The notes beneath the pieces are model-generated. The model searched no databases. It was not told the origin of the DNA and was given only the letters and a program-made list of their open reading frames with translations. From NCBI GenBank assembly GCA_944350095.1, contig CALVOB010000018.1, forward strand, positions 1-58,445: a stretch of 58,445 bases of DNA, read 5' to 3'. Shown in pieces: positions 3,901 to 53,367 of the stretch. This stretch comes from an uncultured Clostridia bacterium (GTDB taxonomy: Bacteria > Bacillota > Clostridia > Christensenellales > UBA1242). Made by a program: the position numbers and the translations under genes. Numbering within the stretch: the stretch's first letter is position 1; the number at the start of each line of letters is the position of its first letter.

Positions 3901-3984
3901 GCACGGAAATGCCGAGCCGTAGTCTCGGCTGAAAACCGCAAAAGCGGTTTTCTAAATTTTGCAAAGCAAAATTTGTTTCCGTGC
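3901..3984 (-). repeat. Four-way-junction palindromic element (subfamily II copy)
   Basis: Outer stem GCACGGAAA/TTTCCGTGC encloses GCCGAG/CTCGGC, AAAACCGC/GCGGTTTT and AAATTTTGC/GCAAAATTT hairpins. It begins 14 nt after the stop of the 1883-aa gene. Confidence 0.7.
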
Positions 3985-13682: not shown

Positions 13683-13715
13683 AATATCTCCTAATTTATC
13701 TTAAATATTTTTTAG

Positions 13716-13743
13716 AATGTTTGTCAATTATTTGACAAACATT
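13716..13743. promoter_or_regulatory. Perfect 12-bp inverted repeat AATGTTTGTCAA-ttat-TTGACAAACATT
   Basis: Read directly. The left arm supplies a minus-strand TTGACA, 17 nt upstream of TAAGAT, for the GLUG gene. Confidence 0.4.
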
Positions 13744-13784
13744 TGTTATTTTTTCTTAAAAATAAAAATTAATTTATATTTACT

Positions 13785-13812
13785 TTGTAAAAAAATATTA
13801 AAATAGTATAAT
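13785..13812 (+). promoter_or_regulatory. Candidate glpK promoter TTGTAA-16 nt-TATAAT
   Basis: Hexamers read directly, 18 nt upstream of the glpK ATG region. Confidence 0.5.
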
Positions 13813-25405: not shown

Positions 25406-25710
25406 TATTTTATCTCAACAATTTTTATAGCTGTGAAAGGTTGACGGTGACCTTGTTTTTTTCTTTCATTCTTTTTAGCTTTGTATTTAAAAACAACAAC
25501 CTTATCGCCCTTTCCGTGCTCTACAACTTCAGCAACAACGCTTACTTTTTCTACATAAGGTGCACCAGCTGTAATTTTTTCGCCGTCTACAACAAGTAGT
25601 GGTTTAAATGTAATTTTATCCCCTACTGCTCTTTCAAGTTTTTCAACTTGAATTGTATCGCCAGCGCTAACTTTATACTGTTTTCCACCTGTTTCAATAA
25701 TAGCGTACAT
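25405..25710 (-). CDS. rplU: 50S ribosomal protein L21
   Basis: MYAIIETGGKQYKV. Start set at 25710 after AGGAGG; the longer track ORF is an upstream extension. Confidence 0.95.
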   Translation of the reverse strand: MYAIIETGGKQYKVSAGDTIQVEKLERAVGDKITFKPLLVVDGEKITAGAPYVEKVSVVAEVVEHGKGDKVVVFKYKAKKNERKKQGHRQPFTAIKIVEIK

Positions 25711-25796
25711 GGTATTCCTCCTTCCTAAAAAACTCGCTGTTAAGGTAGCCAAAAGCTTTATAACCTTTTCCATGCGGATAACATATGAATAGTATC

Positions 25797-25825
25797 AAAA
25801 AAAATGCTTGATGTCAAGCATTTTT
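25797..25825 (-). terminator. Rho-independent terminator whose stem also carries the rplU -35 box
   Basis: ATGCTTG-acat-CAAGCAT followed by U8 on the minus strand. TTGACA (25812-25817) -17 nt- TACTAT (25789-25794). Confidence 0.7.
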
Positions 25826-25905
25826 AAGTTTTATTTTTGTATAGAAGCAAATATTGCAAAACATAATAATTTAATCTATATTTTACAGTATTTCCATAGA
25901 GAGTA

Positions 25906-25978
25906 GCATTGCCTTTTGCCTGCAAAAGATAACTTGCATAAGCAAGTTGTAATTTTGACAAGGTCAAAATTGCAATGC
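25906..25978 (-). repeat. Four-way-junction palindromic element (subfamily I copy)
   Basis: Outer GCATTGC/GCAATGC encloses CTTTTGC/GCAAAAG, (AT)AACTTGC/GCAAGTT(gt) and AATTTTGAC/GTCAAAATT with no linker nt. It ends 2 nt from the stop of the lipoprotein gene. Confidence 0.7.
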
Positions 25979-25980
25979 GT

Positions 25981-26487
25981 TTATGCCGTTGGAGCTTGCT
26001 CTAAGGTTGCACTACTATCTACACTTAATGTGTAAGTTACCTCGGCTGATGTAGAATTCCATTTAATTTTAACTTGCACATTATTCTCTTTGCTTACACT
26101 AGTAATCCAAACAAGTGAGCCATCTTCTTCAAAAGCAGTTTCATCATATTCATTCCAACCGCTTTCATCTTGTCTATTTGTAGTTTTAACATAGGCATCT
26201 TCACCACCTACTGTTAAGCCAGATGGTGGAGTAAATCTTATAGCAACAATATTTCCAGCTTCAATTCCAAGCACGGTTTCACTATAAGGTATTGTACCTT
26301 TCAAAACAAGATTATAACCGTTTTGAGTTAGTGAATATTCTGCCTCTTCTGTGATTGGCGTAAAAGTTTGATTAGAACTATTGTATGTTCCAAGTGTAAC
26401 TTTTTCTGCCGGATTTCCACAAGCAATTAAGCTGGTTACTGCAAGACCAACAACTAAAGCTAGTGAAAAACTTTTTAAAATTCTCAT
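25981..26487 (-). CDS. Lipoprotein (168 aa), function unknown
   Basis: Signal peptide with lipobox LIAC-G. Start at the second ATG, 6 nt after AAAGGAG. Confidence 0.7.
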   Translation of the reverse strand: MRILKSFSLALVVGLAVTSLIACGNPAEKVTLGTYNSSNQTFTPITEEAEYSLTQNGYNLVLKGTIPYSETVLGIEAGNIVAIRFTPPSGLTVGGEDAYVKTTNRQDESGWNEYDETAFEEDGSLVWITSVSKENNVQVKIKWNSTSAEVTYTLSVDSSATLEQAPTA

Positions 26488-38897: not shown

Positions 38898-39185
38898 TTA
38901 ATCTTTTTTATCTTCAATTTCTACTATATTTTCTTTGTCTTTTTCTTCTGAATTTTTTTGGTTAATTTCTGTTTCTTCTGTGTTTTCTTCTGTTTCTTTT
39001 TTATTTGGCATTGTAACTATTCCAAATACAACTAAAACTCCGCAAACAGACATTATTATATCAGATATTAACTCTTCTTGTACTTCTACTCCAAAGCACT
39101 TTGTTATAGACTGCACAAGTATTACTACCGCACCAGAAAGTGCCGTCCAAAATCCATACGATTTTATTCTATCTTTAAATTTCAT
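38898..39185 (-). CDS. Holin (phi LC3 / Phage_holin_1-like)
   Basis: KDRIKSYGFWTALSGAVVILVQ..FG..VVFGIVTMP pattern, two TM helices, charged C-tail. Confidence 0.6.
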   Translation of the reverse strand: MKFKDRIKSYGFWTALSGAVVILVQSITKCFGVEVQEELISDIIMSVCGVLVVFGIVTMPNKKETEENTEETEINQKNSEEKDKENIVEIEDKKD

Positions 39186-39411
39186 TTAATTTTTTTCCTT
39201 TTTTCTTGGGCATTATTATAACTTTTTTTATTTCACAAATATCTTCTTTTATATCTTCAACGATATCTAAATGATGTGAAAGTTTTTTAATTGCGTCTTG
39301 ATATTTTTCTTCCCGCTTTTTACTATCCTTAATTTGAATAAATAAAAGTGATACAAAAAGTATGGCAAAAATACCATTACTTATAATAATATTAATAATA
39401 TCTTGCCACAT
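39175..39411 (-). CDS. BhlA/UviB-family holin-like protein
   Basis: Single N-terminal TM (GIFAILFVSLLFIQIK), then DSKKREEKY and a helical tail, as in BhlA/UviB. Confidence 0.5.
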   Translation of the reverse strand: MWQDIINIIISNGIFAILFVSLLFIQIKDSKKREEKYQDAIKKLSHHLDIVEDIKEDICEIKKVIIMPKKKGKKLNEI

Positions 39412-39413
39412 AA

Positions 39414-40283
39414 CTATCTATTTTTTAGAGCTTGCAAAAGTGTAGCGTAATAATTGCCAAGTTCAATTTTATATTGGTCGTTATTAGTAAGTTCAGCCAA
39501 AGCTTCATCTTTATCTAATGTATAGAAATATGAAAGAGCTAAGTTGTACTTTTCCCCTTCTTTAACTCTATTTAGAGCTGTTGAACCATATTTACCAATA
39601 AAATCTGCTAATTCTTGATTTTGCTTTTGCTGATTTAATTTATACTCAGCTTCTGTTTCCGCTATCTTGTTGTTATACTCTAATACTTCCTTTTCTTTTT
39701 CTTCAATTTCTTTATTAATCTCTTCTATTTTTTCATTAAGTTTGGTAGCGTAAGAAATATCAAAGGAATTTAATGCATTTTGTTTTTGACTTTCTAAAAG
39801 CGATTTTTCTTCTTCTAATTCTTGAAATTTTTGATTATATTCTTGATCTAATTTAGAATATTCTTCAAGCATACCTTGGTCAAAAGCATCTAAAATATTT
39901 ACAACAATTGAAGACCTAGCAAGGCCTCTACTAGTTGCATCCATAGACGCATCTTGTTTTAATTCAGAATATGTGTTTTTTAAACTTTCCTTTTGTGTAT
40001 CTAAATTTTGTTTATTAGTAGATTGAAGATTGTTTATACTATCCACTTTTGTTGAATATTCTTCCAATATATCGTTTTTACCTTGGTCTAAATAGCTTTG
40101 CAAACTAGACTTAGCACTTTCTTCCACTTCTTCCTTAGTTGGAGCTGTGTATTCCATTCTATCAAGGGTTAAATCGGAATTATCAAAAGAATATTTTTTA
40201 TCAATGTTTTTAAACTCATCAAAAAGATTAGCTTGCTTATTTATTTTTTCTGACTGTTCGTCTGTAAATTTGTATGTATACAT
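39414..40283 (-). CDS. Coiled-coil phage-module protein (289 aa)
   Basis: Start at 40283 after AAAGGAG. Heptad-rich E/K/Q sequence. Function unknown. Confidence 0.5.
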   Translation of the reverse strand: MYTYKFTDEQSEKINKQANLFDEFKNIDKKYSFDNSDLTLDRMEYTAPTKEEVEESAKSSLQSYLDQGKNDILEEYSTKVDSINNLQSTNKQNLDTQKESLKNTYSELKQDASMDATSRGLARSSIVVNILDAFDQGMLEEYSKLDQEYNQKFQELEEEKSLLESQKQNALNSFDISYATKLNEKIEEINKEIEEKEKEVLEYNNKIAETEAEYKLNQQKQNQELADFIGKYGSTALNRVKEGEKYNLALSYFYTLDKDEALAELTNNDQYKIELGNYYATLLQALKNR

Positions 40284-40382
40284 TTTTTCTCCTTTTGCAT
40301 TTCTCTTAAATTTAAAATTTCTGGACATTTTTCATAAAAATTTTTTCTTTTAAACCTTTGTATTTTATAATAAATTTCTAAA

Positions 40383-41888
40383 TCATCCATAAACTGAAAG
40401 CACCACTTCTGGACAAGAAATTTCCGCATTTCCATTTTCCGTGATAAAGCTTAATTGAATATACTCTCCACGAACATTTGTTCTCACTCTTTGCGTTCCA
40501 TCTTTTCCTAAAATTTCATATTCTTTTTCTTCAATATCAGATTTTACAACTATTTTACAATCATACTTACTTTTTATAAAAACTTCTTTTATACGCTTTT
40601 GCTTACCAGCATAACCTAAATTAGAATTAGGAGAAAGCCACACACTTTTTAAAACTTCCCCAAACACTGTTCCATCATGAGTTAACTCACCCATTTTATT
40701 GGCATAAGTTCCATTAAAACAAGCAACAAGTTTAGATACTTCTCCTTCTTCAAGGCTAATCATTTTATTTATATCAACACCACGCATAATGTTTATATCA
40801 CCAGACTTTAAGTCATATTCAATAAGAGCATTGTTTATAAATTCACCCGTTTCACAACCAATTTTTTCATCGTCTGGAAAATTGAGTTTACAAGCTAAAT
40901 AATATTTGCCGTTATGAAAAACGCTAGACGCATTTTCATTCTCAACACCCTCAAACATACTCTCTATTCCAAGGTCAAGTTTTGTTGTTGTATAGCCACT
41001 AAAATAATGAACACCGTCTTTGGCTAAAAACATTATTCTATCTCCGCACGAACAAACTGTTCCACCATATATTTTAACGCTTGATATGAATAATTGACTT
41101 ACACTAAAATCTTCAAGCGAGCCATAAGCCGAAACTCTGGCAACACCATAATCACGAAATACATATACATAATCATTAAAAGATAACACTGCACACATAC
41201 TTCCGCGCTCATCTACCATTTGAATAAAGCCAGCTTCATCTAATTCATAATTCCATGCTGTAGGGTCTAAATTTGCGCTAAAAACAAGAGTGTTTCTTTC
41301 GCCCTCTAAAATGGCAAATAATCTTTCATAATGAATACAAACTGATACAAGTTTTGGTGCATCATCATAGGTTTTTGCTAAATAATTTTGTGTAAACACA
41401 AGCATTGAATCGGTTGGAGATGAAAAAATCATACAATCTTCACCATTAAGTCTATAATTTATAGCAACAGGAACGCTTGTAAACAATGGAATGTCTGGAA
41501 CTTTAAAAGAATTAGAAACATAATGTAAAACATCAAAATAACAAAGGTCACCATCTTGTGTGGTGTACATAATTTTATGTTTTCTCTTTTCAGTTAAATT
41601 GTCGTAATACCTAAAATGCCAAAGATTTGTTATGTTTTTATTTTCATAAATTTCTATAACTCTATTTTCACCAAACTCATCGGGTATAGTGTTTGGAAGC
41701 GTAAGTTCTTTAAAGCCAAGCCCTGTTTTTAATGCGCCGTTTTTAACTTGATAATTGTATACAAGTTTGCCTTGTTTGTGTGGAAGAAGATTATCATCTA
41801 TTTCTGTGTTCATACCAGAAGCAAAACTAGAATAAGTAATTTTATAATTTTTTGTGGACTTTGTTTTAACCTTATTTGAATAAAACAC
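40383..41888 (-). CDS. Phage-module structural protein (about 501 aa), beta-rich; tail/nozzle/receptor-binding candidate
   Basis: Position after the connector-like gene. Preferred start is the GTG at 41888, 8 nt after AGGAGG and overlapping the upstream TAG; the track start at 41897 abuts the RBS. Confidence 0.5.
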   Translation of the reverse strand: MFYSNKVKTKSTKNYKITYSSFASGMNTEIDDNLLPHKQGKLVYNYQVKNGALKTGLGFKELTLPNTIPDEFGENRVIEIYENKNITNLWHFRYYDNLTEKRKHKIMYTTQDGDLCYFDVLHYVSNSFKVPDIPLFTSVPVAINYRLNGEDCMIFSSPTDSMLVFTQNYLAKTYDDAPKLVSVCIHYERLFAILEGERNTLVFSANLDPTAWNYELDEAGFIQMVDERGSMCAVLSFNDYVYVFRDYGVARVSAYGSLEDFSVSQLFISSVKIYGGTVCSCGDRIMFLAKDGVHYFSGYTTTKLDLGIESMFEGVENENASSVFHNGKYYLACKLNFPDDEKIGCETGEFINNALIEYDLKSGDINIMRGVDINKMISLEEGEVSKLVACFNGTYANKMGELTHDGTVFGEVLKSVWLSPNSNLGYAGKQKRIKEVFIKSKYDCKIVVKSDIEEKEYEILGKDGTQRVRTNVRGEYIQLSFITENGNAEISCPEVVLSVYG

Positions 41889-42451
41889 TAAATCCACCTC
41901 CTAGATGGTAATCTTATTTCGCTTTTTTTAGAATAGGCTTCTTTTAGTCCACTATAAAATCTTGTTTCCCATACTTCTGCATCATCATAAAGCCCTGTAA
42001 TTAAACAAAATTCCATTGCTATGCCATAAGCAAGAACTCTATCTTGAATTTTACCGCCAAACATGAAAACTTCGTCTTCAAATGATAACTCTTCTGGAGC
42101 GTAGCTATATGTTAATTGTGCACAAAGAACATTTGCATGAATTCCATCTTCTTCAAGAGAATATGGTATATTTTTTCCATTGGCATAGAGTTTTCTAATT
42201 TCTGTTATGGTTTTTGACAATTTGTTATAAGCAAGCACCCCATCTATGAAAACAACTTGTTCAGTTTTTATAAGTGGAATATAAGCAGTAGCTATTTCAT
42301 TATAAACAAGGTTAAAACATTTTTTTAAATGTTCTATTTCTGTATTTTCAAGAGTTGGAATTGTGGTTTGCTCACCAAATGGAGAATATATAAGCAAATC
42401 CTCCCTGTTTAAAAACATTAACGCAAGTTTTAATATTTCCTTAACTTTCAT
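41888..42451 (-). CDS. Head-tail connector/adaptor-like protein (187 aa)
   Basis: Called from position and size, plus an N-terminal MKVKEILKLALMFLNREDLL pattern reminiscent of gp6-like connectors. Weak. Confidence 0.35.
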   Translation of the reverse strand: MKVKEILKLALMFLNREDLLIYSPFGEQTTIPTLENTEIEHLKKCFNLVYNEIATAYIPLIKTEQVVFIDGVLAYNKLSKTITEIRKLYANGKNIPYSLEEDGIHANVLCAQLTYSYAPEELSFEDEVFMFGGKIQDRVLAYGIAMEFCLITGLYDDAEVWETRFYSGLKEAYSKKSEIRLPSRRWI

Positions 42452-42710
42452 ATACTCCTCTCTTTCTATTTTCTTCGTCTAGTTCTTTTAATAATCTATC
42501 CCGATTTTCAACACGGGTTTGATTAACAAAATCTATTGTACGAGAGTCTAATTCATCAAAAGGAACAGTCAGACAATATGTGTCTGACTGCCCACTGTGA
42601 TGAATTTCATACTTTTTCTTTTTCGTGTTATAGAGGATAAAATATTTGAAATCTATCTCTTTTAGCCTTTGGCTGATGTAATAAACATCATTTTTTATTT
42701 CAATTAGCAT
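42441..42710 (-). CDS. Hypothetical phage-module protein (89 aa)
   Basis: Strong AGGAGGAG RBS and translational coupling to the next gene. Confidence 0.5.
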   Translation of the reverse strand: MLIEIKNDVYYISQRLKEIDFKYFILYNTKKKKYEIHHSGQSDTYCLTVPFDELDSRTIDFVNQTRVENRDRLLKELDEENRKRGVYES

Positions 42711-42731
42711 TTTTCTCCTCCTATTTTTAAG

Positions 42732-42810
42732 GCAAGGAAGTGCCGACTTTAAAAAGTCGGCTGGCGATGAAATCGCCTAAAAATTTTTACAAAAATTTTT
42801 ACTTCCTTGC
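42732..42810 (-). repeat. Four-way-junction palindromic element (subfamily II copy) abutting the capsid stop codon
   Basis: Outer GCAAGGAAGT/ACTTCCTTGC encloses GCCGACTTT/AAAGTCGGC, GGCGAT/ATCGCC and TAAAAATTTTT/AAAAATTTTTA. Confidence 0.7.
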
Positions 42811-44046
42811 TTAATTTCCTGCGTTAGTTTCTTGAATAGCAGTAACAATATCACTAAACGGACTAGAAACAGTAGCAGATATATTAGAAATTTTAGCCTG
42901 ACCATTAGGTCTATCGCAAATAAGGTCTGCGTATTTAACAAGAGTAGCTGAATATGTAGGATAACCAGCGTTTTGTTTGATAACTTTTCCGTCGTCACCT
43001 TCAAGCCATTTCCAGTCGCAAAGTTGATGAAGTGTAAAATCATTAGTATTAAGTAAATACATAGTTCCATCTTCAACAAATCTATCTGCAACAACAGGAA
43101 TACCGTTGTAAGTTATAGCTTTATATCCACCGCTAAGCTCACAAACATCTATGTTTCTTCTAAACTTAGTTAAATAATCTTGATAAGCTCTTCTAACCTT
43201 TGTTGAACAAGAAATAAAGTTTACTTCACTTCCGCTAGCCTGCTCTAAGAAATCTATTGCATCTTGAATTAAAATGTCAGAAATTTCTGTAGCAGTGTTA
43301 GAAACATAAGGGTTAAGCCAAGGATATTCGCTTTTTGTTAAACCATAAAGTGTAGCATCAGCACCAAAAATAGCACCTAATCCTGTAATTTCGTATCCCT
43401 TAGAATTTTGAACATAAATTTTAGAACCGCTTGCAATGCTAGCACTAAAAGAAGATTCAAAATCTAAATAAATCCTTTTGTTAGTTCTATCCACAAAAGT
43501 AACTCTATATCCACTTGCATCTTCAATTTTAGAATCTGCATTATAAATATCTACAACCATACCTTCTATAAAATTTCTTACATCGTCCATTTGAAGATAT
43601 TTTTCAGAATTAGAATAAACTTTTGTTGTTGTTCCAAGAAGACCTGTACCATCACCATAAAGCATTCTTCCAAGATTAAAACTACTAGCTTTTATTAAGC
43701 CTTCCATTTCATCATTAAGTAAATTTACAAATGCACCTGCATTATTTGCAGAAGCTCTAATAGCCTTATCAGAAATTTCAATTTTTCCATAAAGGTTTTT
43801 AAGTGATGTTTTGAATTGAACATAATTATTCCCCGCAGCCTTTGGAAGAGGGTCTGTTTCGTCACCAGCACCTATACCGCCGTTAATACCATAAGGTGCA
43901 AGTTTAATAATTTCTTTTCCCCACACATCTTGTGAAGATTGTTTAATTTTGCCAAGAAGAGGATTAGCATTTATATTAAGTTGATTTGCAACAACTCCAA
44001 GATAAACACTTTTTAACGCCTCGTTAGCACTTGAAATTGAAACCAT
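42811..44046 (-). CDS. Major capsid protein (HK97-fold candidate, 411 aa)
   Basis: Lies directly after the scaffold gene. Size and the LYGKIEISDKAIRAS..A.V..L..E..GL......N..R.LYGDGTG pattern resemble phage capsid families. Confidence 0.7.
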   Translation of the reverse strand: MVSISSANEALKSVYLGVVANQLNINANPLLGKIKQSSQDVWGKEIIKLAPYGINGGIGAGDETDPLPKAAGNNYVQFKTSLKNLYGKIEISDKAIRASANNAGAFVNLLNDEMEGLIKASSFNLGRMLYGDGTGLLGTTTKVYSNSEKYLQMDDVRNFIEGMVVDIYNADSKIEDASGYRVTFVDRTNKRIYLDFESSFSASIASGSKIYVQNSKGYEITGLGAIFGADATLYGLTKSEYPWLNPYVSNTATEISDILIQDAIDFLEQASGSEVNFISCSTKVRRAYQDYLTKFRRNIDVCELSGGYKAITYNGIPVVADRFVEDGTMYLLNTNDFTLHQLCDWKWLEGDDGKVIKQNAGYPTYSATLVKYADLICDRPNGQAKISNISATVSSPFSDIVTAIQETNAGN

Positions 44047-44055
44047 AATTTTCTC

Positions 44056-44658
44056 CTATTTAAAAAATTTCTCTACAATTTTTTTAGCATCATTTAAATT
44101 TTTAGGGTTAAATTCCTCTTTTGAAGAAAGTTTAGCCCCGTTACCACCAGAAATTACAGGCGGAGCAACTTTTAGTTCCTTTAAATAGCTTTGCAAAACT
44201 TGTTTTTTAATTTCTTCATTATTAAAAACATAAGAATTTAAAAAGGTTTTATCACTAACCAATTTTTCTGGTTCAACATATTTTTTCATGGCTATGCTAG
44301 ACCATGCAAGTTCCAAAGCATTTTCTTTAGATTTTAGTTCAGAATTATTTAAAATCTCCTCAGAAATTTCTTTGGAATATTTTTTAGCCTCTGGATTTTT
44401 TTCTAAAAAATTGGCTACGCGTCTATTCCAATCTTCTTCATTATAGATAGTTTTATTTTTTTCATTTTCCAGAGCACTTAATTTTTGACACTTCTTAGTA
44501 AACTCTGCCTGCAAATTGTTATAGGCGTTAAGTAAACTTTGTGCGTCTTTAAATTTTCCAAGGGAGCCATCACTTTCAAGATTTGCTGTGCCACTAATGC
44601 AATCCTTTTGCACCTCACTATCAAGATTTGGTTGTTCCCTAATAACATTTTCTTCCAT
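44056..44658 (-). CDS. Scaffolding protein
   Basis: Acidic helical 200-aa protein between portal and capsid genes. Carries the GKFKDAQSLLNAYNNLQAEFTKK motif common in phage scaffolds. Confidence 0.55.
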   Translation of the reverse strand: MEENVIREQPNLDSEVQKDCISGTANLESDGSLGKFKDAQSLLNAYNNLQAEFTKKCQKLSALENEKNKTIYNEEDWNRRVANFLEKNPEAKKYSKEISEEILNNSELKSKENALELAWSSIAMKKYVEPEKLVSDKTFLNSYVFNNEEIKKQVLQSYLKELKVAPPVISGGNGAKLSSKEEFNPKNLNDAKKIVEKFFK

Positions 44659-46499
44659 TATTTATTTTCTCCTACTATAGATAAAATTTGTTTATGCGTT
44701 CTTATATGTTTTAAAAGCTCTTCTTTTTGTTTCTCTGTAAGTTCGTTAGCCAAATAAAATGATGTATGCTCATCTATATGCAAACTATGATTGTCTATCT
44801 CACAAGGCTCTGGCATACTTCCTTCTAAAAGCATAGCATTTTCTTTACTAGCTCTTTTTGTGTGTTGCTCATTTAAATCTTGTGAATTTTCCCAAATTCC
44901 AAACCCTAAAAGCTCCAATGCTTTTATTCTCATACGGTTACTTAATTTTCCGTTTTCGTCATGAAGAAGACCAGCATTTAAAAGTTCAAGCACCATACTT
45001 CTACGCTGAGCCAAGCTTTCATTTATTTCATTTTCTGTTTCAAAAACAACTTCATCAGAAGTTATATCAGCTGATGTAAAGTATAAAACTTCAAGGTCAC
45101 CATTTTCACCTACAATCTTTAAAAGTCTAGGAAGAGTAGCAAATTGTTTGTAAAGCCTTAAAACTTGTTGCGCCATTCTTCTTAGTGCCTCTCTAATATT
45201 TTCAGCCGTAACTGAAATTCTGGTTTCATCTTGGTCAATCAAAAGTTGAAGAGCCGTTCCACTTAAACTATTAGTTATTGTGCTATCATTTAAAATATCA
45301 GAAGTTCCACTAACCACAGTAAACTCATTTAAAAGCCTTTCTTCTTCATAAGTAAAATCTAACGGCACACTACCTGTGCTTAAATATTTTGGAGCAGAAG
45401 AACCTTGCCTATAAACAAGCACTTTGCCAGGACATAAACCTTCTTCTTCTAAATTTTCTGTATCCACAGAGCCATCTTCTACTGTTAAAATCCCCATAGA
45501 AAGTCTGTTTAAAAACTCGTGCTTTCTATTTTTGATTGCATTATAAGAGCGTTGAAGTGGAATAACTCTTTCCACAATGCTAGTTCCCCAAAAACTACCC
45601 GTTTGGTCACAAGCAACTTGTCTAATAAATGGGAATCCTCTTTTGCCATCTTCACCATTAATAAAAGGCAGTTCCCCAACATACAAAAGTTTATCCCCTG
45701 CAACTATAACAAGTCTACCATTAGGATATTTAATAGTTGGAGCTTCATATCGTTCGATTACTATTGCATAATTATCTCGTGAAGAAGATATAACCTTGTT
45801 TACATTTGTGTTATATCCAAGCCCACCCATATTTCTAGATACACCATCTAGTGAAAAAACATTTAAGGTTTCGCCTTTAACATCTACACCCCACTTATTT
45901 TTAATTTCGTCTACATGATAAGCTTTTGCATGAATTAAACTTCTACAATCCTCGATATTTGCACAATTTACGCTTTCAGGGTATATTTCAAAAGGAGATA
46001 CCGCAGTTATTTCGATATCTCCCATAGTTATATTTTCACCTTTATTATTTTTTGCTAAAAAATTTCCTTTTGCACTATTCCAAATAATTTTATAAAAAGA
46101 AGTTCCACAAATTTCGCTCCACTTTGTAGCTTCTGTAATTACATTATAAACATTTAATTTGTTATATATAGAATTTACAATTTTTTTAGATATTTTAGCC
46201 GTTTTAATATCTCTTTCATCTCCCGATGATGGAATAACCGTCATAGTAGGACGAACTCTTTGAAGTTTTGCCATTCTTCTTTCTATTAGCGGTGCTATGT
46301 GATTATAAACTTCATGTTCTTGCCAAAAAAATTGTTTTTCAAAGTCAGTAATTTCGCCGTTATAACCAATGCCACAATATTGATTACCCATAACAAAATT
46401 CATATTTAATTGCCACTGTGCTTCAAAACTTCTTTTTTCTTCTTGTCTTTTTTTAAAGTCTTCTATAACTTCATTTACTAATTTTTCTTCAACTTTCAT
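44658..46499 (-). CDS. Portal protein (613 aa)
   Basis: Called from synteny (upstream of scaffold and capsid) and size. TAATG stop-start overlap with the scaffold gene. Confidence 0.6.
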   Translation of the reverse strand: MKVEEKLVNEVIEDFKKRQEEKRSFEAQWQLNMNFVMGNQYCGIGYNGEITDFEKQFFWQEHEVYNHIAPLIERRMAKLQRVRPTMTVIPSSGDERDIKTAKISKKIVNSIYNKLNVYNVITEATKWSEICGTSFYKIIWNSAKGNFLAKNNKGENITMGDIEITAVSPFEIYPESVNCANIEDCRSLIHAKAYHVDEIKNKWGVDVKGETLNVFSLDGVSRNMGGLGYNTNVNKVISSSRDNYAIVIERYEAPTIKYPNGRLVIVAGDKLLYVGELPFINGEDGKRGFPFIRQVACDQTGSFWGTSIVERVIPLQRSYNAIKNRKHEFLNRLSMGILTVEDGSVDTENLEEEGLCPGKVLVYRQGSSAPKYLSTGSVPLDFTYEEERLLNEFTVVSGTSDILNDSTITNSLSGTALQLLIDQDETRISVTAENIREALRRMAQQVLRLYKQFATLPRLLKIVGENGDLEVLYFTSADITSDEVVFETENEINESLAQRRSMVLELLNAGLLHDENGKLSNRMRIKALELLGFGIWENSQDLNEQHTKRASKENAMLLEGSMPEPCEIDNHSLHIDEHTSFYLANELTEKQKEELLKHIRTHKQILSIVGENK

Positions 46500-46509
46500 A
46501 ATTTCTCCT

Positions 46510-46719
46510 TTAAATTTTGCTTAACCTTTTAGGTGAATAAGGTGCATCTAAGCTTCTTGGTATAATACTTCTTCCAAGCTCCTCAAAAAGCTCCTTTTTA
46601 CAATTTTCACAAAAGTGAATTTTAGGGCTAAATCGTTTTCTAGTAAAAAAGCAATATTTAGCCTCATTTTTACAACCCAGCATATCGCAAGTAGCCTTGT
46701 AAGAAATTTCTCTAATCAT
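46510..46719 (-). CDS. Small zinc-ribbon protein (69 aa)
   Basis: C..C(x)..FCENC cysteine pairs. Confidence 0.5.
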   Translation of the reverse strand: MIREISYKATCDMLGCKNEAKYCFFTRKRFSPKIHFCENCKKELFEELGRSIIPRSLDAPYSPKRLSKI

Positions 46720-47002
46720 AATCCTCCTCTTCTAAAAGCTTAATAAGTCTGTTGCGTTCAGCTTTTAATTCTTCATCAGTCATAAGTTCAATTTCTTCCC
46801 TGCTTAAATTTCCATATCTTTCAATTAAAATTTTCATAGCAGAGATATCAGGTGCATAATGTTTTTTAGTAACTTTCTTTTTGCAAAGTTTAGCAGTACC
46901 CTCTTCATCAAAGGAATACTCTTCAACAACTTCATCTGCGTCATATCCTAACGCTCTTTTTATCAAAGCCTTCTTTAATTTTTTCTCGTTAAATTCCTCC
47001 AT
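46712..47002 (-). CDS. Terminase small-subunit-like fragment (96 aa, no HTH)
   Basis: ALGYDADEVVEEY..KKKVTKKHYAPDISAMKILIE resembles the C-terminal half of Firmicute phage TerS proteins. From memory only. Confidence 0.35.
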   Translation of the reverse strand: MEEFNEKKLKKALIKRALGYDADEVVEEYSFDEEGTAKLCKKKVTKKHYAPDISAMKILIERYGNLSREEIELMTDEELKAERNRLIKLLEEEDYD

Positions 47003-47119
47003 AAAAAACCTTCTTAAATTAAAAAAGTTACCGCCGAAAATTTCCGCGATAACTTTAATTACCTATATTTTATTTTATAAATATAAAAAATTCAATTCCA
47101 CATGACAAAATAAGGTTTA

Positions 47120-48022
47120 TTACATTCCTTGACCGCCTGATGCTCCATCCTGCACAGTTTTTACTTTAGTTGTAATATTAAGTGTATAATCAACACCTTG
47201 AGTTAATTCAGGTACTACAAACTTTGTAATAAATATGTGCTTATCTGGAATCATTCCTCCATGAAAAGTTAAATCAAAGTCTGCTTGATCTGTAATTATA
47301 TCTCCTTCCCTAAGCATAAAGGGTTCAGATGTAGATAATGTTACTTCTTCACCATTAATAAAAACATTACTATGGTTTGAACCTGAAGATAGATACAATT
47401 CCGCATAAACAGGTGTATACTTTTCAAAAACAAATTCCGCATTAAGTTGTCTTTCTTCTCCTGTAAATGACTTTGTAAAATCATTTAATCTTATTGTTAT
47501 TGTATAAGTATAAGGGCTAACTGTTCCAGTATATGCTGGCAATATTATAGAACCTTCCTTACTTTCTATTACATTACTATCGCCAAATAAAGTTTTTAAA
47601 GCATATAAATTTATAGATTTTCTAACTAAAACTTCTGTTTCTGTGTAATTTGTAAATGTAAATTCATATTTTACTACATTCTCAGTAGTTGTAAATGTTA
47701 CATCTGTTCCTGCTGACCATGTTGCTTCTGTGCTTCCGTTGCTTGTTACAAATTTATCTGTTTGAGCACCGCTTGGCTTAGCGTCACTGTCGCTTACAGG
47801 TTTATATGAATATCCTTTTATATTAGATAAGCTTGTTTGGCTTGTTGCTGTGCCCTGTTTAATATCCCCTTGAAGCATTACATACACGCCCTCTGCTGTA
47901 AAAGATAGATTACTTGTAACATTAAAACTTACTGTACCTACTGCTAGCACTCCCACTACAAATAAACCTAATGTAAAACATAATGTGCTAATTAATGCTA
48001 TTATCTTTGTTCTTTTATTCAT
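47120..48022 (-). CDS. Membrane-anchored surface protein (300 aa), paralog of the LRR protein N-domain
   Basis: It shares several motifs with the 969-aa protein: VGVL, NVTS..SF.A.GVYV, GYSY, SNG...W..G..V.F..EN..Y..FTNY.E and YTIT..L..F..SF. Confidence 0.65.
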   Translation of the reverse strand: MNKRTKIIALISTLCFTLGLFVVGVLAVGTVSFNVTSNLSFTAEGVYVMLQGDIKQGTATSQTSLSNIKGYSYKPVSDSDAKPSGAQTDKFVTSNGSTEATWSAGTDVTFTTTENVVKYEFTFTNYTETEVLVRKSINLYALKTLFGDSNVIESKEGSIILPAYTGTVSPYTYTITIRLNDFTKSFTGEERQLNAEFVFEKYTPVYAELYLSSGSNHSNVFINGEEVTLSTSEPFMLREGDIITDQADFDLTFHGGMIPDKHIFITKFVVPELTQGVDYTLNITTKVKTVQDGASGGQGM

Positions 48023-48110
48023 ATATTTTTCTCCTGTTTTTATTTACTTATTATTATAACTTAATATTTTAAAAATATCAAATAAATATAATAAATAATT
48101 TTTACAAAAA

Positions 48111-48138
48111 AATTTACCCCCCCCCGCATTTTTGTCAA
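48111..48138 (-). promoter_or_regulatory. Promoter TTGACA-16 nt-TAAATT with a G9 tract inside the spacer
   Basis: Minus strand reads TTGACA AAAATGC-G9 TAAATT. It lies about 90 nt upstream of the 300-aa gene and just downstream of a terminator. Confidence 0.5.
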
Positions 48139-48198
48139 CTAAAAAACAACATTTTTCAAAAATTTTTTTATGCAACTTATTAATATTTTATTTTAAAT

Positions 48199-48239
48199 AA
48201 AAAAGCGAACCATTTAAGTATAATACTTTTGTGGTTCAC
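48199..48239 (-). terminator. Rho-independent terminator after the 1115-aa gene
   Basis: Minus-strand stem GUGAACCA/UGGUUCGC (one G-U, which would be a C-A mismatch on the other strand), followed by U6. Confidence 0.65.
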
Positions 48240-48267
48240 TTATTTTTACAAGTTTTAAATATAAATA

Positions 48268-51200
48268 TTAATAATAATCACTCATGAATCCTGCACTTCT
48301 AGATTTTCTTATAATTAACCAAATTGCTACGCCTAATATTCCAGCTCCACCAATTCCGCCTAATGTCCACCAAAGCCAATTAAGATTAGAACCCGCATCT
48401 TCAGCCTTCTCAATATTGGCTATCAACAAAAATTGCTGATTAGATGTTCTAAATGTTATTTCTTCATCAGAAGCAGATGAATTCTTTAAAAAACTTTCAA
48501 TTGGGTCTGATGTATTGCCCGCTTGCCAACCTTTAAATTCATAACCGTCTTTTACTTCTATCCTAATAATAACATCAGCATCTCTTGAAATAGAACCACT
48601 GAATACATAGTTATTTTCAGATGAATATTCATAAGGAACTTCATTTATGTAAATTGTTGCACAATTTTCTGTGCTTAATGAAGTTCTTACCGTCATATTA
48701 CATATTTGACTTGTAAAAATAGCTCTTAAAGTATAAACTTGGTTAATTTCAGTTGGCATTGGAACATAAAGATATGTGTTCCCTAAATTTTCACTTGAAA
48801 ATCTTATAGCAACTGACTGTCTTGCTGGTAGTCTAGTATCCTCATTGCCAACAGCAGTTTGCCCCAATTTTGCAGTTGTTAAAACCTCTTGTCCATCAAC
48901 TTCGGTAACCCAAACCCATTCTACAAATCCATAATTCTTAGCAGGAACAGCTTCAAATTCGTATAATCCTCCGCTAGAAACATTAATTTCTATCTTATCA
49001 AGTTCTTTTTGTGCCCCTCTAATTCTAACACCACCTTGTGCTAAATCCTGGCTTTCTACAACTAAATTATAGCTTATAGGCTCAGTTATAATAGTATATA
49101 GTCCGCTTGTAGAAGCATTCATTATAAATGTTACGCTCACCCCTGTTTCATCTTTAATTAATTCTAATGATTGTCCGTCTTTTTGAATGTTAGAAATTGC
49201 GTATAATAGTTCTTCACCTTCTGCAACTTCAGCTTTGATAGTAACAGTATCTCCAAATTTAACTAAATTTTCTCCTTCTTGAAAACTATCAGCTATTATT
49301 TGAGGACTTTGTTTCACATGTGTAGAATATGACAATGAAATTGTAAAGCTTTCAAAAGGTTGTAAAACAATATGTTCTTCACCTGCTTTTGCATACCATT
49401 TTTCACTAAAATTCCATGGATAGAATATTGTGTCCCACATTGATGAAGATACAAATGTGCTTTGTTCCCTAAAAATAGAAACATTAGAAACTTTTGTACA
49501 ACTAGTTAAAATATAGGTGGTTTCAGCTCCAATTAAATCATAACTTGAACTAGAAGCAGTATGGTTATATGCTATATTTCCAACAACAGGTAAATAAACG
49601 CCTGTTCCCATTTCACCAAAAAGTAATCCAACTTTTGGTGCAACATCATCATTTACAGTAACGCCATATATTTCGCCCGTTGCAAAATTATTTACGATTT
49701 TGCCTTCCCAAACAACTCCTACCAATCCACCTACTATTACATCGGTAATAGGCATACTGTCAGTAGTTAAGTCGTTTTTTACAACTTCCGCCCAAAGCAT
49801 TTTTTCTAAATTAGAGTTTGTGCAAAACACAAAACTATTTGAAATTTCACCCTCTACTTGTTTGCCAACAAGTCCGCCAACAACAATTTGACTTGCTGTT
49901 AAACTAGTACCTGTTGCCTTAATCTGTGCAGTTGAATAAGAATTGGAAATCTTTGTCCCTGTACTTGTTCCTACAATACCACCCGCTATTATTGATGTAT
50001 TTGCGTTTACTTCAATATAACCGCTTACTTCAACACTATCTATAATAGAGCCCTCGGCTGTGTGAGCAAGTAATCCAACGCTTGAACTTGATGTAAAAGT
50101 TGTCCAATCTTCAATTTTAAGATTCTTAATTGTCGCATTAGTAAGCCTATTGAAAAGACCGCCATTTTCACTTATTATAGAATTTTTTATATTTGTAATA
50201 TTAAAGGAATAATTGCTTGATTGAATATTTCCAAATAATGAATAAAATGTATAAGAAATTAACTCCTCTTCTCCTGCACTAATATATCCTATAATTTCGC
50301 TTGATGTTATTTTATTTTCCCCGCCAGCTGTACCTTCCACAACAAATGAATATCTTAATGGCGAAGAATTTACATTTTTTACATTTAATTCAAGTTGAGT
50401 TAAATTTTTTATTACAAAAGTATAGTTTTCTGGATTGTTCATAACATTTACATTATCACTAAAATATCCATTTGTTCTATTTGGATCTCCACCAATGTAA
50501 AATGAAATATCATGTTCTCCAGGAGCAAGAGTTATTGTAAATTCAGATGTACTATTTCCATCTTCCACAACCCCATTAACCTGAGCTTCCATTATTAAAT
50601 TTAAGGTTATTGCTTTGTCTGTATTATTTACAAACTTCTTAGAATAATCTGTTGGAATACATAACATATTATTTAAATTCTCAACAAAAACATAGTTTAA
50701 ACTTCCAAGTCCAAATTTTATTAAACCACTATTGATTATGTCACTTAAATTTATAAATGTTACCATATCGTTATTGATAGTATAATCAATTATTTCTGGT
50801 GTGTTTTCAGTATTTTCATATTCAATTTTTAATATATTACCTTCTTTGGAAATAGTAACTATTCTATTAGTTTCATTTAAATTTTTCAATACAAAATTGA
50901 AACTTTCATTTCCAAAGGAAACATTTAATGTTATTCCTCCAACATATCCATGATTTAATGTTGGAACAGTAAAATTTGCAGTGTTGTCATCTTGGATAAT
51001 TAGTGAGATATCGCTGTAATCAGAAACTCCATAATAATCATCTATATTTTGAGAACCAGATTCAACCGTTTTAATTTCTTCAACTATTAAAGAAATATTT
51101 TGATAGTTACTAACTACATCGTTATAAGAAATGCCTGTAAAAAGAGAAGAAATTGTGTTTGAAAGCTGAATATCACCTAAAATTGAATCTCTATTAAAAG

Positions 51201-51615
51201 TGTAAGAATTAGAATCAATAACAGTTTCACCACTAATTTGATACTTATATTTTAAAGATGAAATTTCTCTAAAAACATGCACTGAGTTAGTAATAACTCC
51301 ATCAGAAGAAGTAAGAATATTAGAACTTTGTCCTATTTCTAAATCCTGTCCTTGTGTTTGTTCAAGTGAAATAGAATATCCATTTCCATCTAAAACACCT
51401 GAAAAATTTATAGGCTTATAATCTGATGTTAATTTAATATCGCTAGCAAGATAATATGAACCTGTCGTAATTTTAGAAAAATCTTCTGCACTACTTATTG
51501 CTTCGCCAGCTGGCGTTTGAGCGCTTGCAGAATTATATGTATTATTAAAATTAAAAAAACTAAGCCCCAAAGTAGCTATACAAAAAACTAAAATTAAGCT
51601 AAATATTTTTTTCAA
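48268..51615 (-). CDS. GLUG-motif surface protein (1115 aa) with signal peptide and C-terminal TM anchor
   Basis: N-terminal signal (..SASAQ). Central GGLFN, AGGIVGT and VGGLVGK repeats. C-terminal WWTLGGIGGAGILGVAIWLII-RKSR. TTG start after GAGG. Confidence 0.75.
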   Translation of the reverse strand: MKKIFSLILVFCIATLGLSFFNFNNTYNSASAQTPAGEAISSAEDFSKITTGSYYLASDIKLTSDYKPINFSGVLDGNGYSISLEQTQGQDLEIGQSSNILTSSDGVITNSVHVFREISSLKYKYQISGETVIDSNSYTFNRDSILGDIQLSNTISSLFTGISYNDVVSNYQNISLIVEEIKTVESGSQNIDDYYGVSDYSDISLIIQDDNTANFTVPTLNHGYVGGITLNVSFGNESFNFVLKNLNETNRIVTISKEGNILKIEYENTENTPEIIDYTINNDMVTFINLSDIINSGLIKFGLGSLNYVFVENLNNMLCIPTDYSKKFVNNTDKAITLNLIMEAQVNGVVEDGNSTSEFTITLAPGEHDISFYIGGDPNRTNGYFSDNVNVMNNPENYTFVIKNLTQLELNVKNVNSSPLRYSFVVEGTAGGENKITSSEIIGYISAGEEELISYTFYSLFGNIQSSNYSFNITNIKNSIISENGGLFNRLTNATIKNLKIEDWTTFTSSSSVGLLAHTAEGSIIDSVEVSGYIEVNANTSIIAGGIVGTSTGTKISNSYSTAQIKATGTSLTASQIVVGGLVGKQVEGEISNSFVFCTNSNLEKMLWAEVVKNDLTTDSMPITDVIVGGLVGVVWEGKIVNNFATGEIYGVTVNDDVAPKVGLLFGEMGTGVYLPVVGNIAYNHTASSSSYDLIGAETTYILTSCTKVSNVSIFREQSTFVSSSMWDTIFYPWNFSEKWYAKAGEEHIVLQPFESFTISLSYSTHVKQSPQIIADSFQEGENLVKFGDTVTIKAEVAEGEELLYAISNIQKDGQSLELIKDETGVSVTFIMNASTSGLYTIITEPISYNLVVESQDLAQGGVRIRGAQKELDKIEINVSSGGLYEFEAVPAKNYGFVEWVWVTEVDGQEVLTTAKLGQTAVGNEDTRLPARQSVAIRFSSENLGNTYLYVPMPTEINQVYTLRAIFTSQICNMTVRTSLSTENCATIYINEVPYEYSSENNYVFSGSISRDADVIIRIEVKDGYEFKGWQAGNTSDPIESFLKNSSASDEEITFRTSNQQFLLIANIEKAEDAGSNLNWLWWTLGGIGGAGILGVAIWLIIRKSRSAGFMSDYY

Positions 51616-51692
51616 AATAATTACCTCACTACTTTATATTCTATCTAAATATAACACAATTATTTAAATTAACAAAATTAATTTTAAATAAT

Positions 51693-53120
51693 TTAATAAT
51701 ATTTTTTAGATAATTTTTTAATTAATTTTTCTTTATCTTTTTGAATGTCAGTTTTAAATGTTATTTTTTTAGGAATTTCAGGTCTGCTAATTATATAATA
51801 TCTAAGTTCATCTAAGGCATGGTCATCTTTTTTTACAGGATTATCCCCTTTACCCCAAAAGTATCCTTTTATTTCTCTAATTAAATTTGTGCAAGTTCTA
51901 AAAATAAAAAGTTTTGCCTTGCCCTCACCATCTTTTAAATAGCTTTTTACCCTTGAAATTCCAGCAAATAAATTTTTATCTACCTTAGGATTTGCTAGAA
52001 TTCCATTATCGTAAAAAAGTTCAACTACACTACGCTCAGCCGATAATGTCCTTTGAGTTGCTGCACTGTCTATTAAAGTAGAAATCATTCCATTACTAGC
52101 TCTGTGCCAATTTAATTTGTCTGATATTTCCTTTATTTTTTCTGCATGATAAATTATATCCCTTTTAGCTTCGTAATGCTCAGCAATTACATACACATTT
52201 CCATCATAATCTACAGCATACCAATGTGCAGACAACGGATTATTTAGTCCAGGGTCTATTGAAATATTATCTTGCCATTCATAAGGAATATCAAAAGGGT
52301 CTATTACATGAACATTTTCATCAAATTCACTATAAACTAAACCTCCATTAGCTGTAAATCGGCCATATTTTCTTGCTTCAAGCTCGCTTTCACTTAAAGT
52401 TGATGTTAAAAGTTTAATTTCATCTTTATCTAAAAAAGGATTATCTTCCCAATTCATTTGTTCGCACCAAATTTCAGGATTATTTTTTTCGTTTAAATAA
52501 ATTTCATTATAAACCCAAGTTAATCCTTTTAAAGGTGTCATAGTGCCAAATATATCACCTTTTTTATCAAAAACTCTCATTAAACATTCAAAGTATATAT
52601 CTTCTGGAGGTTCTTCATCAAACCAAACAAAATCTAAACTCGCACCTTGAAATTTATCTCTACCTTGGTCAGCACTTTTAAAATAAATTTTACTATTTAA
52701 TCCAGAAACATTTTTAATTATTATATAGTCTATAATACCACTTTCATATCCTTCTTTTCTCCCCTCAACCATGCAAACATCAACAATCCAATCAGCATTT
52801 AAATAATGCAGAATTTTACTTTGTGCAACTTCTCTTTGAACTTGTCTGGAAACAGAAACAACCCAACCTGTAACACACCTTTTATTTTTTCTGTATGGAT
52901 GAATTCCTCTTGCAAGCCAAATACATTCAACAGCTCCACATTCAGTTTTTCCGCTTCTATTTCCACCAAACACCCAACGATTTCTTTTTGGACATTTATG
53001 AAACAAAAGCTGTTTTTCATGGACAACTTTTCCTGTATTGTATCTATTTAAAGCGTTTTTAGAATATCGTTTTATAATTTCTTTATTTACTTTATCTAAT
53101 TTTTTTAATAACTCTTTCAA
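51693..53120 (-). CDS. terL: Terminase large subunit
   Basis: Walker A GGNRSGKT, Walker B LDFVWFDEE, C-terminal nuclease-like half. TTG start 7 nt after GGAGG. Confidence 0.85.
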   Translation of the reverse strand: MKELLKKLDKVNKEIIKRYSKNALNRYNTGKVVHEKQLLFHKCPKRNRWVFGGNRSGKTECGAVECIWLARGIHPYRKNKRCVTGWVVSVSRQVQREVAQSKILHYLNADWIVDVCMVEGRKEGYESGIIDYIIIKNVSGLNSKIYFKSADQGRDKFQGASLDFVWFDEEPPEDIYFECLMRVFDKKGDIFGTMTPLKGLTWVYNEIYLNEKNNPEIWCEQMNWEDNPFLDKDEIKLLTSTLSESELEARKYGRFTANGGLVYSEFDENVHVIDPFDIPYEWQDNISIDPGLNNPLSAHWYAVDYDGNVYVIAEHYEAKRDIIYHAEKIKEISDKLNWHRASNGMISTLIDSAATQRTLSAERSVVELFYDNGILANPKVDKNLFAGISRVKSYLKDGEGKAKLFIFRTCTNLIREIKGYFWGKGDNPVKKDDHALDELRYYIISRPEIPKKITFKTDIQKDKEKLIKKLSKKYY

Positions 53121-53139
53121 ATTGTGTCCTCCAAATTAG

Positions 53140-53224
53140 AAAGAGGCATTGCAATTTTGACTTCGTCAAAATTATAACTTGCTACTGCAAGTTATCTTTT
53201 GCAAGCAAAAGGCAATGCCTCTTT
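53140..53224. repeat. Four-way-junction palindromic element (subfamily I copy) upstream of terL
   Basis: 13-bp outer stem AAAGAGGCATTGC/GCAATGCCTCTTT encloses AATTTTGAC/GTCAAAATT, ATAACTTGC/GCAAGTTAT and CTTTTGC/GCAAAAG with zero linker nt. Confidence 0.7.
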
Positions 53225-53367
53225 GGTACGGGCGGAAATTTTGCAAAATACAAAAATAAATTTTTTTGCTTTGCTATATTTCTTACCACTTAAAAAAACG
53301 CAAAATTGGTATTTTTTAGACAAAAATATAAATGCCAACTTTGCACTAAAAGAATTAAAATTGTTTT

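Follow-up and report, generated by a model that had tools for sequence, protein, structure and literature searches.

A Nested-Palindrome Repeat Predicted to Fold as a Four-Way Junction between a Capsid Gene and Its Downstream Neighbor in an Uncultured Clostridia Bacterium

Introduction

The REP, BIME and REPIN sequences of Proteobacteria are repetitive extragenic palindromes scattered over 3' untranslated regions and the spaces between cistrons. PMC12306157, citing Liang et al. 2015, reports that roughly half of the REPs of E. coli are situated no more than 15 nt from a stop codon and that ribosomes stall on them there, with a drop in translation; it also credits REPs with stabilizing the mRNA upstream of them (citing Higgins et al. 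1988). Each REP is a single imperfect hairpin of 20-40 nt carrying a GTAG or CGTC tag, and REPs are present in hundreds of copies and tied to a RAYT transposase. Bacterial MITEs and the Gram-positive repeats (BOX and RUP of pneumococcus, bcr1 of Bacillus cereus), as well as Correia elements, are small non-coding sequences with terminal inverted repeats, which occur in multiple copies, are present or absent between relatives, are co-transcribed with neighboring genes and form stable RNA folds; MITEs normally have target-site duplications and a parent insertion sequence. Two viral systems share part of this design. In the inverted terminal repeats (ITRs) of parvoviruses (AAV), an outer palindrome encloses two hairpins in a T-shaped three-way junction with essentially no unpaired junction bases, located at the genome ends, where it serves as a replication origin. 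In phage T7, the intercistronic RNase III R sites and the T-phi terminator after gene 10 are single hairpins, conserved in the phage lineage, that place a stable structure within an operon after a highly expressed structural gene and either leave a protective 3' hairpin on the upstream message or attenuate read-through.

We describe here a 79-nt element, E2, located in a 58,445-nt stretch of DNA from an uncultured Clostridia bacterium (the whole stretch is referred to as the window), together with its relatives E1, E3 and E4 in the same window and others on separate metagenome contigs (Table 1). Like REPs, these elements are dispersed and intergenic, are frequently placed within 15 nt downstream of a stop codon (seven of eight), fall into sub-families within one genome and show no target-site duplication. 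Unlike REPs, they are composites of 73-130 nt with four perfect helices, they are known in only a handful of copies, and no consistent tag was seen in them; by inspection, GACG/CGTC occurs in the outer stems of the L141 and L168 elements and is absent from E1-E4 and L143. E2 was rejected as a classical REP because its unit is a four-helix junction. Like MITEs, the elements are small, non-coding and bounded by terminal inverted repeats, and they occur in multiple copies that are present or absent between relatives, form stable folds and are probably co-transcribed with their neighbors. Unlike MITEs, they have yielded neither target-site duplication nor parent insertion sequence, their interiors consist of three abutting perfect hairpins, and their sequence varies far more among copies while the architecture stays fixed. 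The family thus has some of the hallmarks of a MITE (terminal inverted repeats, presence/absence) and lacks another (target-site duplication).

The resemblance to AAV ITRs lies in the outer palindrome enclosing smaller ones with essentially no unpaired junction bases, in the equal folding of either strand and in the perfect symmetry maintained at the DNA level; here, however, three hairpins are enclosed and the elements are internal, mostly beside stop codons. E2 recalls the T7 sites in following a structural gene, but it is absent from the closest relatives of its phage-like island and has paralogues at host loci. Literature searches found no description of a four-way-junction, cloverleaf or nested-palindrome repeat like these. 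The elements are best filed as a new REP/MITE-like structured intergenic repeat of unusually strict architecture, and the family is small, apparently undescribed and found in a narrow group of uncultured gut Clostridia.

Location and Predicted Structure of E2

The ORF upstream of E2 matches phrog_14242 'major head protein' (E = 4e-55), and two of its homologues are named 'phage major capsid protein' by their sources. E2 lies between the stop codon of this gene and the Shine-Dalgarno (SD) sequence of the next one, an AGGAGG located 9 nt beyond the element. The outer stem is formed by GCAAGGAAGT (42732-41) paired with ACTTCCTTGC (42801-10). The minus strand, which has the sense of the mRNA, folds as RNA into a four-way junction of -39 kcal/mol, compared with -14.4 +/- 3.0 for shuffled sequences (z = -8.3; 0 of 200 shuffles as good), and E2 folded as single-stranded DNA gives z = -9.4. 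The preliminary description of this DNA had reported a near-perfect four-way junction at 42732-42810, and all of its coordinates check. Its hairpins are correctly positioned, with one change of length: hairpin 1 was given 9 bp, which would leave only a 2-nt loop, so it is an 8-bp stem with a 4-nt loop. In addition, A42801 had been counted twice, in hairpin 3 and in the outer stem. When the first 13 nt are removed, an alternative fold appears in which the pyrimidine-rich 3' arm pairs with the downstream AGGAGG, a hint from modeling that this arm could pair with the SD if the 5' arm were held open.

Table 1. Coordinates of E2, its neighboring genes and related elements. Unprefixed positions refer to the window; prefixed positions refer to other contigs.
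Feature	Position	Strand	Gap from stop codon (nt)	Details
Major head (capsid) protein gene	42811-44046	-		Stop TAA 42811-42813; from the ORF list
Downstream 89-aa gene	42441-42722	-		AGGAGG 42717-42722; start codon 42708-42710
E2	42732-42810	-	0	Four-way-junction element, 79 nt; 10-bp outer stem and three hairpins
E2 outer stem, 5' arm on mRNA	42801-42810	-		GCAAGGAAGU; first base adjoins stop codon
E2 outer stem, 3' arm on mRNA	42732-42741	-		ACUUCCUUGC; pyrimidine-rich
E2 hairpin GCCGACUU / AAGUCGGC	42742-42761	-		8-bp stem, 4-nt loop
E2 hairpin GGCGAU / AUCGCC	42763-42777	-		6-bp stem, 3-nt loop
E2 A/U-only hairpin	42778-42800	-		9-10-bp stem, 4-nt loop (UGUA in one fold)
E1	3901-3984	-	14	Closest paralogue of E2
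E4	25906-25978	-	2	
E3	53140-53224	+		Near-twin of E4
L141a	L141:12998-13087		0	Sister-species element recovered by models R1/R2
L143 element	L143:13164-13248		0	Sister-species element recovered by models R1/R2
L121 element	L121:15024-15122		5	Sister-species element recovered by models R1/R2
L141b	L141:1643-1719		5	Sister-species element recovered by models R1/R2

A scan of 42600-42950 revealed neither promoter-like nor terminator-like sites in the space that separates the capsid gene from its downstream neighbor, and the sequence directly after E2, CUUAAAAAUAGGAGG, contains no U-run. An intrinsic (Rho-independent) terminator is defined as a GC-rich hairpin followed immediately by a U-run; E2 was rejected as one because the U-run is absent. 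The preliminary description had likewise held that E2 is not a plain terminator and that it is placed for co-transcription with the genes on either side, and both statements agree with the absence of promoter-like and terminator-like sites. A strong hairpin lies downstream of E2 within the 89-aa gene itself (42521-42620, minus strand, -34 kcal/mol); its arms, 42550-42575 and 42581-42606, are 81% complementary.

A Family of Four-Way-Junction Elements

The window was searched for similar structures in two ways, with a sequence-free pattern consisting of a closing stem and three hairpins and with a sliding-window fold. Both searches picked the same four sites, E1, E4, E2 and E3, with scores of -30 to -43 kcal/mol; the best score in twenty 58-kb Markov shuffles was -17.8. 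With the same detector, neither the window nor nine related loci showed a closing stem around two or around four hairpins, so the four-way form is specific. Two weaker candidates were not counted. The four-way junction at 4534-4602 of the L009/L130 contig (-15.6 kcal/mol) falls within the shuffle range (best -17.8), and an AT-rich stem with three hairpins at window 13708-13794 (-18.2 kcal/mol) lies at its edge. The latter site has a conserved counterpart in L111; it probably represents a terminator or operator region and does not belong to the family.

Covariance models were built from E1 alone (R2) and from E3 and E4 together (R1). Besides E1 itself, the only significant matches to R2 in the window were E2 (49.3 bits, minus strand, E = 4e-9), E3 (E = 1e-6) and E4 (E = 2e-5), the next best match scoring 15 bits (E = 0.33); R1 recovered E1 at E = 2.4e-5. 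Outside the window, R1 recovered the L141, L143 and L168 elements, and R2 recovered L121:15024-15122 and two L141 sites. Neither model gave a spurious match (E <= 0.05) when run on 378 kb of further sequence, taken from other relatives and from unrelated contigs. The family of four that had been proposed for the window is therefore supported by structure searches and covariance models alike, and the covariance-model search suggested at that stage recovers copies in related metagenomes as well. About nine independent copies were found in total, four of them within the 58-kb window. They measure 73-130 bp, and in each an outer inverted repeat surrounds exactly three hairpin palindromes; the two arms of the outer stem are perfect inverted repeats, 7-30 bp long, the stems have 6-13 bp or more, and the loops have 3-4 nt. 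The longest is L168:92-221, on an unrelated metagenome contig, a 130-nt element with a 30-bp outer stem and a fold of about -109 kcal/mol.

The copies in the window differ in their surroundings. E1 follows the stop codon of a gene for a 1883-aa surface protein, with a terminator-like hairpin 28 nt further on, and its neighbors are ordinary host genes (the large surface protein and a ZIP transporter). E4 follows a 170-aa gene, 80 nt before a terminator hairpin, and lies upstream of the rplU-prp-rpmA operon, which also consists of ordinary host genes. E3, located 27 kb from E4 and differing from it at 6 of 73 nt, sits between divergent genes, 19 nt ahead of the terminase start, and the motif ACGGGCGGAAAT comes after it.

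Could these structures be the product of chance or of faulty assembly? The AT-rich composition (the GC content of the window is about 30%) does yield weak look-alikes, and nothing else speaks for this explanation, which is already refuted: no shuffle approaches the observed energies, and both E2 and E1 recur in contigs from independent samples and assemblers. E2 is present in 8 independent metagenome contigs with an identical head protein, its sequence unchanged except for a 1-nt loop insertion in two, and E1 was found in about ten independent contigs. Scans with a sequence pattern derived from E1/E2 gave 39 matches in viral contigs and 54 in representative genomes, all of them by chance, in unrelated and mostly GC-rich DNA, and none folding into a four-way junction. 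The core pattern of E3/E4 had 0 matches in viral and metagenome contigs, and BLAST found no match to E2 in the phage collection or to E2 and L168 in the plasmid collection.

Comparison with known RNA families was equally negative. Across the whole window, Rfam 15 at the gathering threshold matched only a tRNA-Leu (anticodon CAA, 872-957, minus strand), which is also the sole ARAGORN match in the window. Permissive Rfam scans of 42650-42900 and 25700-26050 gave sub-threshold noise only, and the sister loci and L168 had no match at the gathering score. The absence of E2 from known Rfam families, suspected earlier from inspection, was thus upheld by an Rfam scan of the kind then proposed. Other candidates were considered and set aside. 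An integron attC site was set aside because the elements have four helices and are not part of a cassette array, and an informal look showed no core sites. A phi29-type packaging RNA is at odds with the T4-type large terminase of the island and with the lack of an Rfam match. Terminal repeats of the phage-like island were rejected because only E3 lies at a boundary. For E4, a ribosomal protein L21 leader was rejected since the weak match lies elsewhere, at 25732-25776; this sub-threshold match (19.4 bits vs a gathering score of 36) is just upstream of rplU. A small RNA derived from the 3' UTR, with GCGGGCGGAAAU as its seed, had nothing in its favor beyond the motif.

Selection on Base-Pairing

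Comparison of related copies allowed changes in stems and loops to be counted arm by arm by hand, alongside the covariance models. Between E3 and E4, 5 of 11 loop nucleotides differ, against 1 of 62 in the stems (Fisher p = 1.7e-4). L141 and L143 carry an element at the same site, starting at the stop codon of a gene that is 66% identical between them at third codon positions. Their stems differ at 8 nt, where about 25 changes would be expected from the third-codon-position divergence (p = 4e-6); six of these eight changes make up three compensated pairs, and 7 of 12 loop bases differ. In the model alignment of E1 with E2, 11 pairs have changed on both sides, with no one-sided change and no broken pair, in keeping with the compensatory differences between these two copies (3901-3984 and E2) that the preliminary description had pointed out. 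RNAalifold found no structure in a MAFFT alignment of the four elements because that alignment was not structurally consistent. These comparisons indicate that the Watson-Crick pairing of all four helices has been kept by selection while the loops drift.

The level at which this selection acts was approached through the symmetry of the two strands. The predicted folds of eight elements contain 306 Watson-Crick pairs (99%) and 3 G-U pairs, and the sense and antisense strands fold with nearly equal energy. The few one-sided changes favor the sense strand twice and the antisense strand twice. With respect to the upstream gene, the models match E1, E2, E4 and L141a in the sense orientation and L141:1643-1719 in the antisense orientation, and the orientation of the L121 element is ambiguous. 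This symmetry is not what a constraint on one RNA strand would produce. It points to a DNA-level palindrome, or an element that works in either orientation, and is compatible with an effect at the RNA level. Among the options offered by the preliminary description, a DNA-level nested-palindrome repeat is the one favored by the Watson-Crick content, the strand symmetry, the dispersed paralogues and their presence or absence between relatives. An RNA-level effect, stabilizing or attenuating, would be a plausible consequence of such a repeat.

Each strand might instead form a cloverleaf or Holliday-junction-like structure in single-stranded or supercoiled DNA and act as DNA with no role for the RNA. 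As part of this reading, which we regard as rather unlikely, the structure would be read by a single-strand transposase, a junction-binding or junction-resolving protein, a nucleoid protein or gyrase. The scarcity of G-U pairs, the symmetric folding and the z-score of the single-stranded DNA fold given above all fit, as do the number of arms, which is always exactly four and never three or five, and a conserved motif, GCGGGCGGAAAT, located within or next to the outer stem. L141:1643-1719 and L009 contain GAA triloops with C-G closing pairs, which form stable DNA mini-hairpins of the d(GCGAAGC) type. Against these points, the bias toward stop codons and terminators is more easily reached through transcription, translation or selection acting on them, no candidate structure-specific protein was found, and a double cloverleaf would have to be extruded from the duplex, which is energetically demanding.

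Placement at Stop Codons

The elements are biased toward stop codons. All but one of the eight of known context, E3 being the exception, begin 0-14 nt after a stop codon, and when the gaps were set against a uniform distribution over the interval from the stop codon to the following feature, the combined p was 0.0045 for six independent loci. At five loci the order is stop codon, element and, 20-80 nt further downstream, a canonical terminator hairpin; since the terminator is separate, the element is not itself the terminator.

Such placement recalls the tRNA-punctuation model for the processing of mitochondrial transcripts, in which case RNase P and/or RNase Z would cut at the base of the element and free the upstream mRNA after its stop codon. 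The presence of exactly one closing stem and three arms, and the start of most copies 0-5 nt after the stop codon, are as this explanation would have it. It is nevertheless very improbable: ARAGORN and the Rfam tRNA model (RF00005) call only the genuine tRNA-Leu, the loops have 3-4 nt instead of 7, the stems reach 6-13 bp or more with no junction nucleotides, and T-loop, D-loop and CCA-like features are absent.

Insertion and Absence from Close Relatives

The closest other islands, whose capsid proteins are 87% and 82% identical to that of the window, have no element at this position and only 17 and 22 nt between stop and start codons. Removal of the 79 nt of E2 from the window leaves TAA, 9 nt and AGGAGG, which is comparable to the relatives. 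The lack of E2 in these islands therefore marks it as a precise 79-nt insertion and not a conserved operon signal, one that recently entered the space between the capsid stop codon and the ribosome-binding site that follows. In nine more distant viral contigs, the same site holds a simple hairpin in four (two with a T-run), nothing in four and a long repeat-filled spacer in one.

Other copies vary between relatives in the same way, all comparisons being between species. E2 and E3 are missing from L121, E2 is missing from L125, and the L121 element is missing from the window. In L121, the 87% relative, a GC-rich four-way junction whose sequence is unrelated begins 5 nt past the stop codon of the holin gene (-88 kcal/mol for the 131-nt stretch folded), and the window has only a terminator at that position. 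Following synteny around ackA did not lead to an orthologue of the E4 site, and a look-up of one gene at the end of the window returned no record. No direct repeat that would mark a target-site duplication flanks E1-E4 or the L121 element; TTAA does occur on either side of E2, but with a C in between, and TTAA is a palindrome in its own right. We infer mobility only from the distribution of copies, because no transposase, target-site duplication or empty/filled pair within a single species was found. The gene call L121:15073-16266 starts inside the GC-rich junction at 15024-15122, and its start was probably mis-called because of the element.

These comparisons also bear on the proposal, made in the preliminary description, of a dedicated capsid-operon signal. 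A cis-acting RNA belonging to the capsid operon, such as an intercistronic stabilizer, an RNase III-type processing site or an expression-ratio attenuator, would be akin to the T7 sites described above and would suit the position of E2 inside a transcription unit with neither promoter nor terminator nearby, as well as the better scores of the sense orientation for E1, E2, E4 and L141a. If the helices of E2 stack coaxially over some 20 bp or more, they could serve as a substrate for RNase III, and in four of the nine more distant relatives a simple hairpin occupies the position of E2. We nonetheless consider a dedicated operon RNA unlikely and do not uphold the proposal. The two closest island relatives are without E2, the paralogues follow unrelated host genes upstream of ordinary terminators, G-U pairs make up only 1% of the total with both strands folding equally, and the loops vary freely. 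Because the loops are free to vary, no sequence-specific recognition is evident.

A Model for the Origin and Effect of E2

These results lead us to lean, with limited assurance, toward a reading of E2 as a REP/MITE-like nested-palindrome repeat that was inserted, has been selected for pairing, is co-transcribed and probably acts as an exonuclease block or a hindrance to ribosomes. The analyses above show the structure, the membership in a family, the insertion, the selection on pairing and the bias toward stop codons, whereas we infer the mechanism of mobility, the transcription of E2 and any effect on mRNA or translation. The elements would have spread or been duplicated within the genomes of uncultured Clostridia close to Candidatus Caccopulliclostridium, with copies ending up almost always 0-14 nt downstream of a stop codon. 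E2 would have arrived as a recent insertion ahead of the ribosome-binding site of the next gene, not as an ancestral operon signal, and selection after insertion would have preserved the pairing of the helices while allowing the loops to vary. Since E2 lies inside a transcription unit, a highly stable four-way junction should be present in the mRNA from the stop codon onward, and because the closed stem joins the ends of E2, the stop codon would be held near the next SD. By analogy with REPs, this structure would be likely to block 3'-to-5' exonucleases, thereby protecting the capsid cistron, and/or to hinder the terminating ribosome. Some observations sit less well with the inserted-repeat model: the structure is preserved at one site between L141 and L143, as discussed below, it seems of little benefit to a capsid gene to have its translation lowered by a roadblock, and E3 does not adjoin a stop codon.

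A broader proposition is that the elements constitute an unrecognized, structure-defined class in bacteria, in which a perfect four-helix junction, in every case with exactly three inner hairpins, is placed at the stop codon and maintained by host-level selection across species because it has a dedicated role where translation or the message ends. Such a role may be that of a mark for mRNA 3'-end processing, a control of ribosome termination or re-initiation, or a Holliday-junction-like DNA site. Preservation of the structure between L141 and L143 over about 34% third-position divergence, which is unlike a decaying selfish copy, argues for a host-level function; the alternative is that the elements are merely tolerated selfish DNA. 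We view the functional class as a tentative proposition of low probability.

If the inserted-repeat model holds, uncultured gut Clostridia carry a class of repeats placed at stop codons, with a strict arrangement of one stem and three hairpins and compensatory upkeep of their pairing. The REP/MITE idea would then extend to a new shape and a new phylum, and the elements would offer a natural system for the effects of structure at stop codons on termination, translational coupling and mRNA decay in Bacillota. For the island, the insertion of E2 would now separate the capsid gene from the next gene, and their expression ratio may have changed. On a practical level, elements of this kind can mislead gene callers and assemblers, as with the L121 gene call that begins inside one, and they would be useful strain markers for this group of Clostridia.

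The Phage-Like Island and Neighboring Sequences

The RpoD encoded in the window falls in a 90%-identity cluster with that of Candidatus Caccopulliclostridium gallistercoris, an uncultured Clostridia bacterium represented solely by metagenome-assembled genomes (MAGs). E2 lies within a compact phage-like island of about 14 kb (window 38900-53230) that encodes a large terminase, a 1115-aa protein, a P22-like portal, the head protein, a DUF7934 protein and holin-like genes; no tail genes were recognized in 38900-53230. Homologues of the head protein number more than 6400, and many of them are encoded on long chromosomal contigs, the largest reaching 405 kb. The island adjoins dnaG-rpoD in the window and in L125 but is located elsewhere in L121. 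It may represent a minimal prophage that is widespread in Clostridia, or else an element resembling a gene-transfer agent.

A motif, (A/G)CGGGCGGAAAT, is found directly after E3 (53228-53239) and after the L141 element (13091-13105), in the unpaired flank, and a second copy occurs about 200 nt downstream in L141. In L168:92-221 it lies inside the 30-bp outer stem, paired with ATTTCCGCCCGC. The presence of the flanking motif as part of a stem in L168 suggests that some copies are 5'-truncated versions of a longer element. Allowing up to 2 mismatches, the motif occurs 5 times in the window vs 0.75 expected; a 14-mer of it had at least 120 viral matches, none of them adjoining an element. In L141:13088-13300, the 3' half of the junction and the flanking motif (about 56 nt) are duplicated some 200 nt downstream. 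This downstream copy is closer to the L143 orthologue than is the 3' half of the intact L141 element, which points to a local rearrangement or repair event.

Further structured sequences were encountered at other sites. On the related viral contig shared with L130, a 477-nt non-coding spacer follows the head-protein gene (L009:4195-4670) and contains 5 tandem GTGAATA units and three hairpin-rich repeats of about 70 nt with GCGAAGC mini-hairpins. Next to the L21-leader match in the window, a palindromic, bidirectional terminator-like hairpin (25800-25825) overlaps a good promoter-like site (TTGACA, 17 nt, TG-TACTAT). Finally, L168 has a second nested palindrome at 262-360, 40 nt past the 130-nt junction, in which GTCATTGCGA and TCGCAATGAC form the outer arms around inner hairpins; this intergenic region is therefore packed with palindromes.
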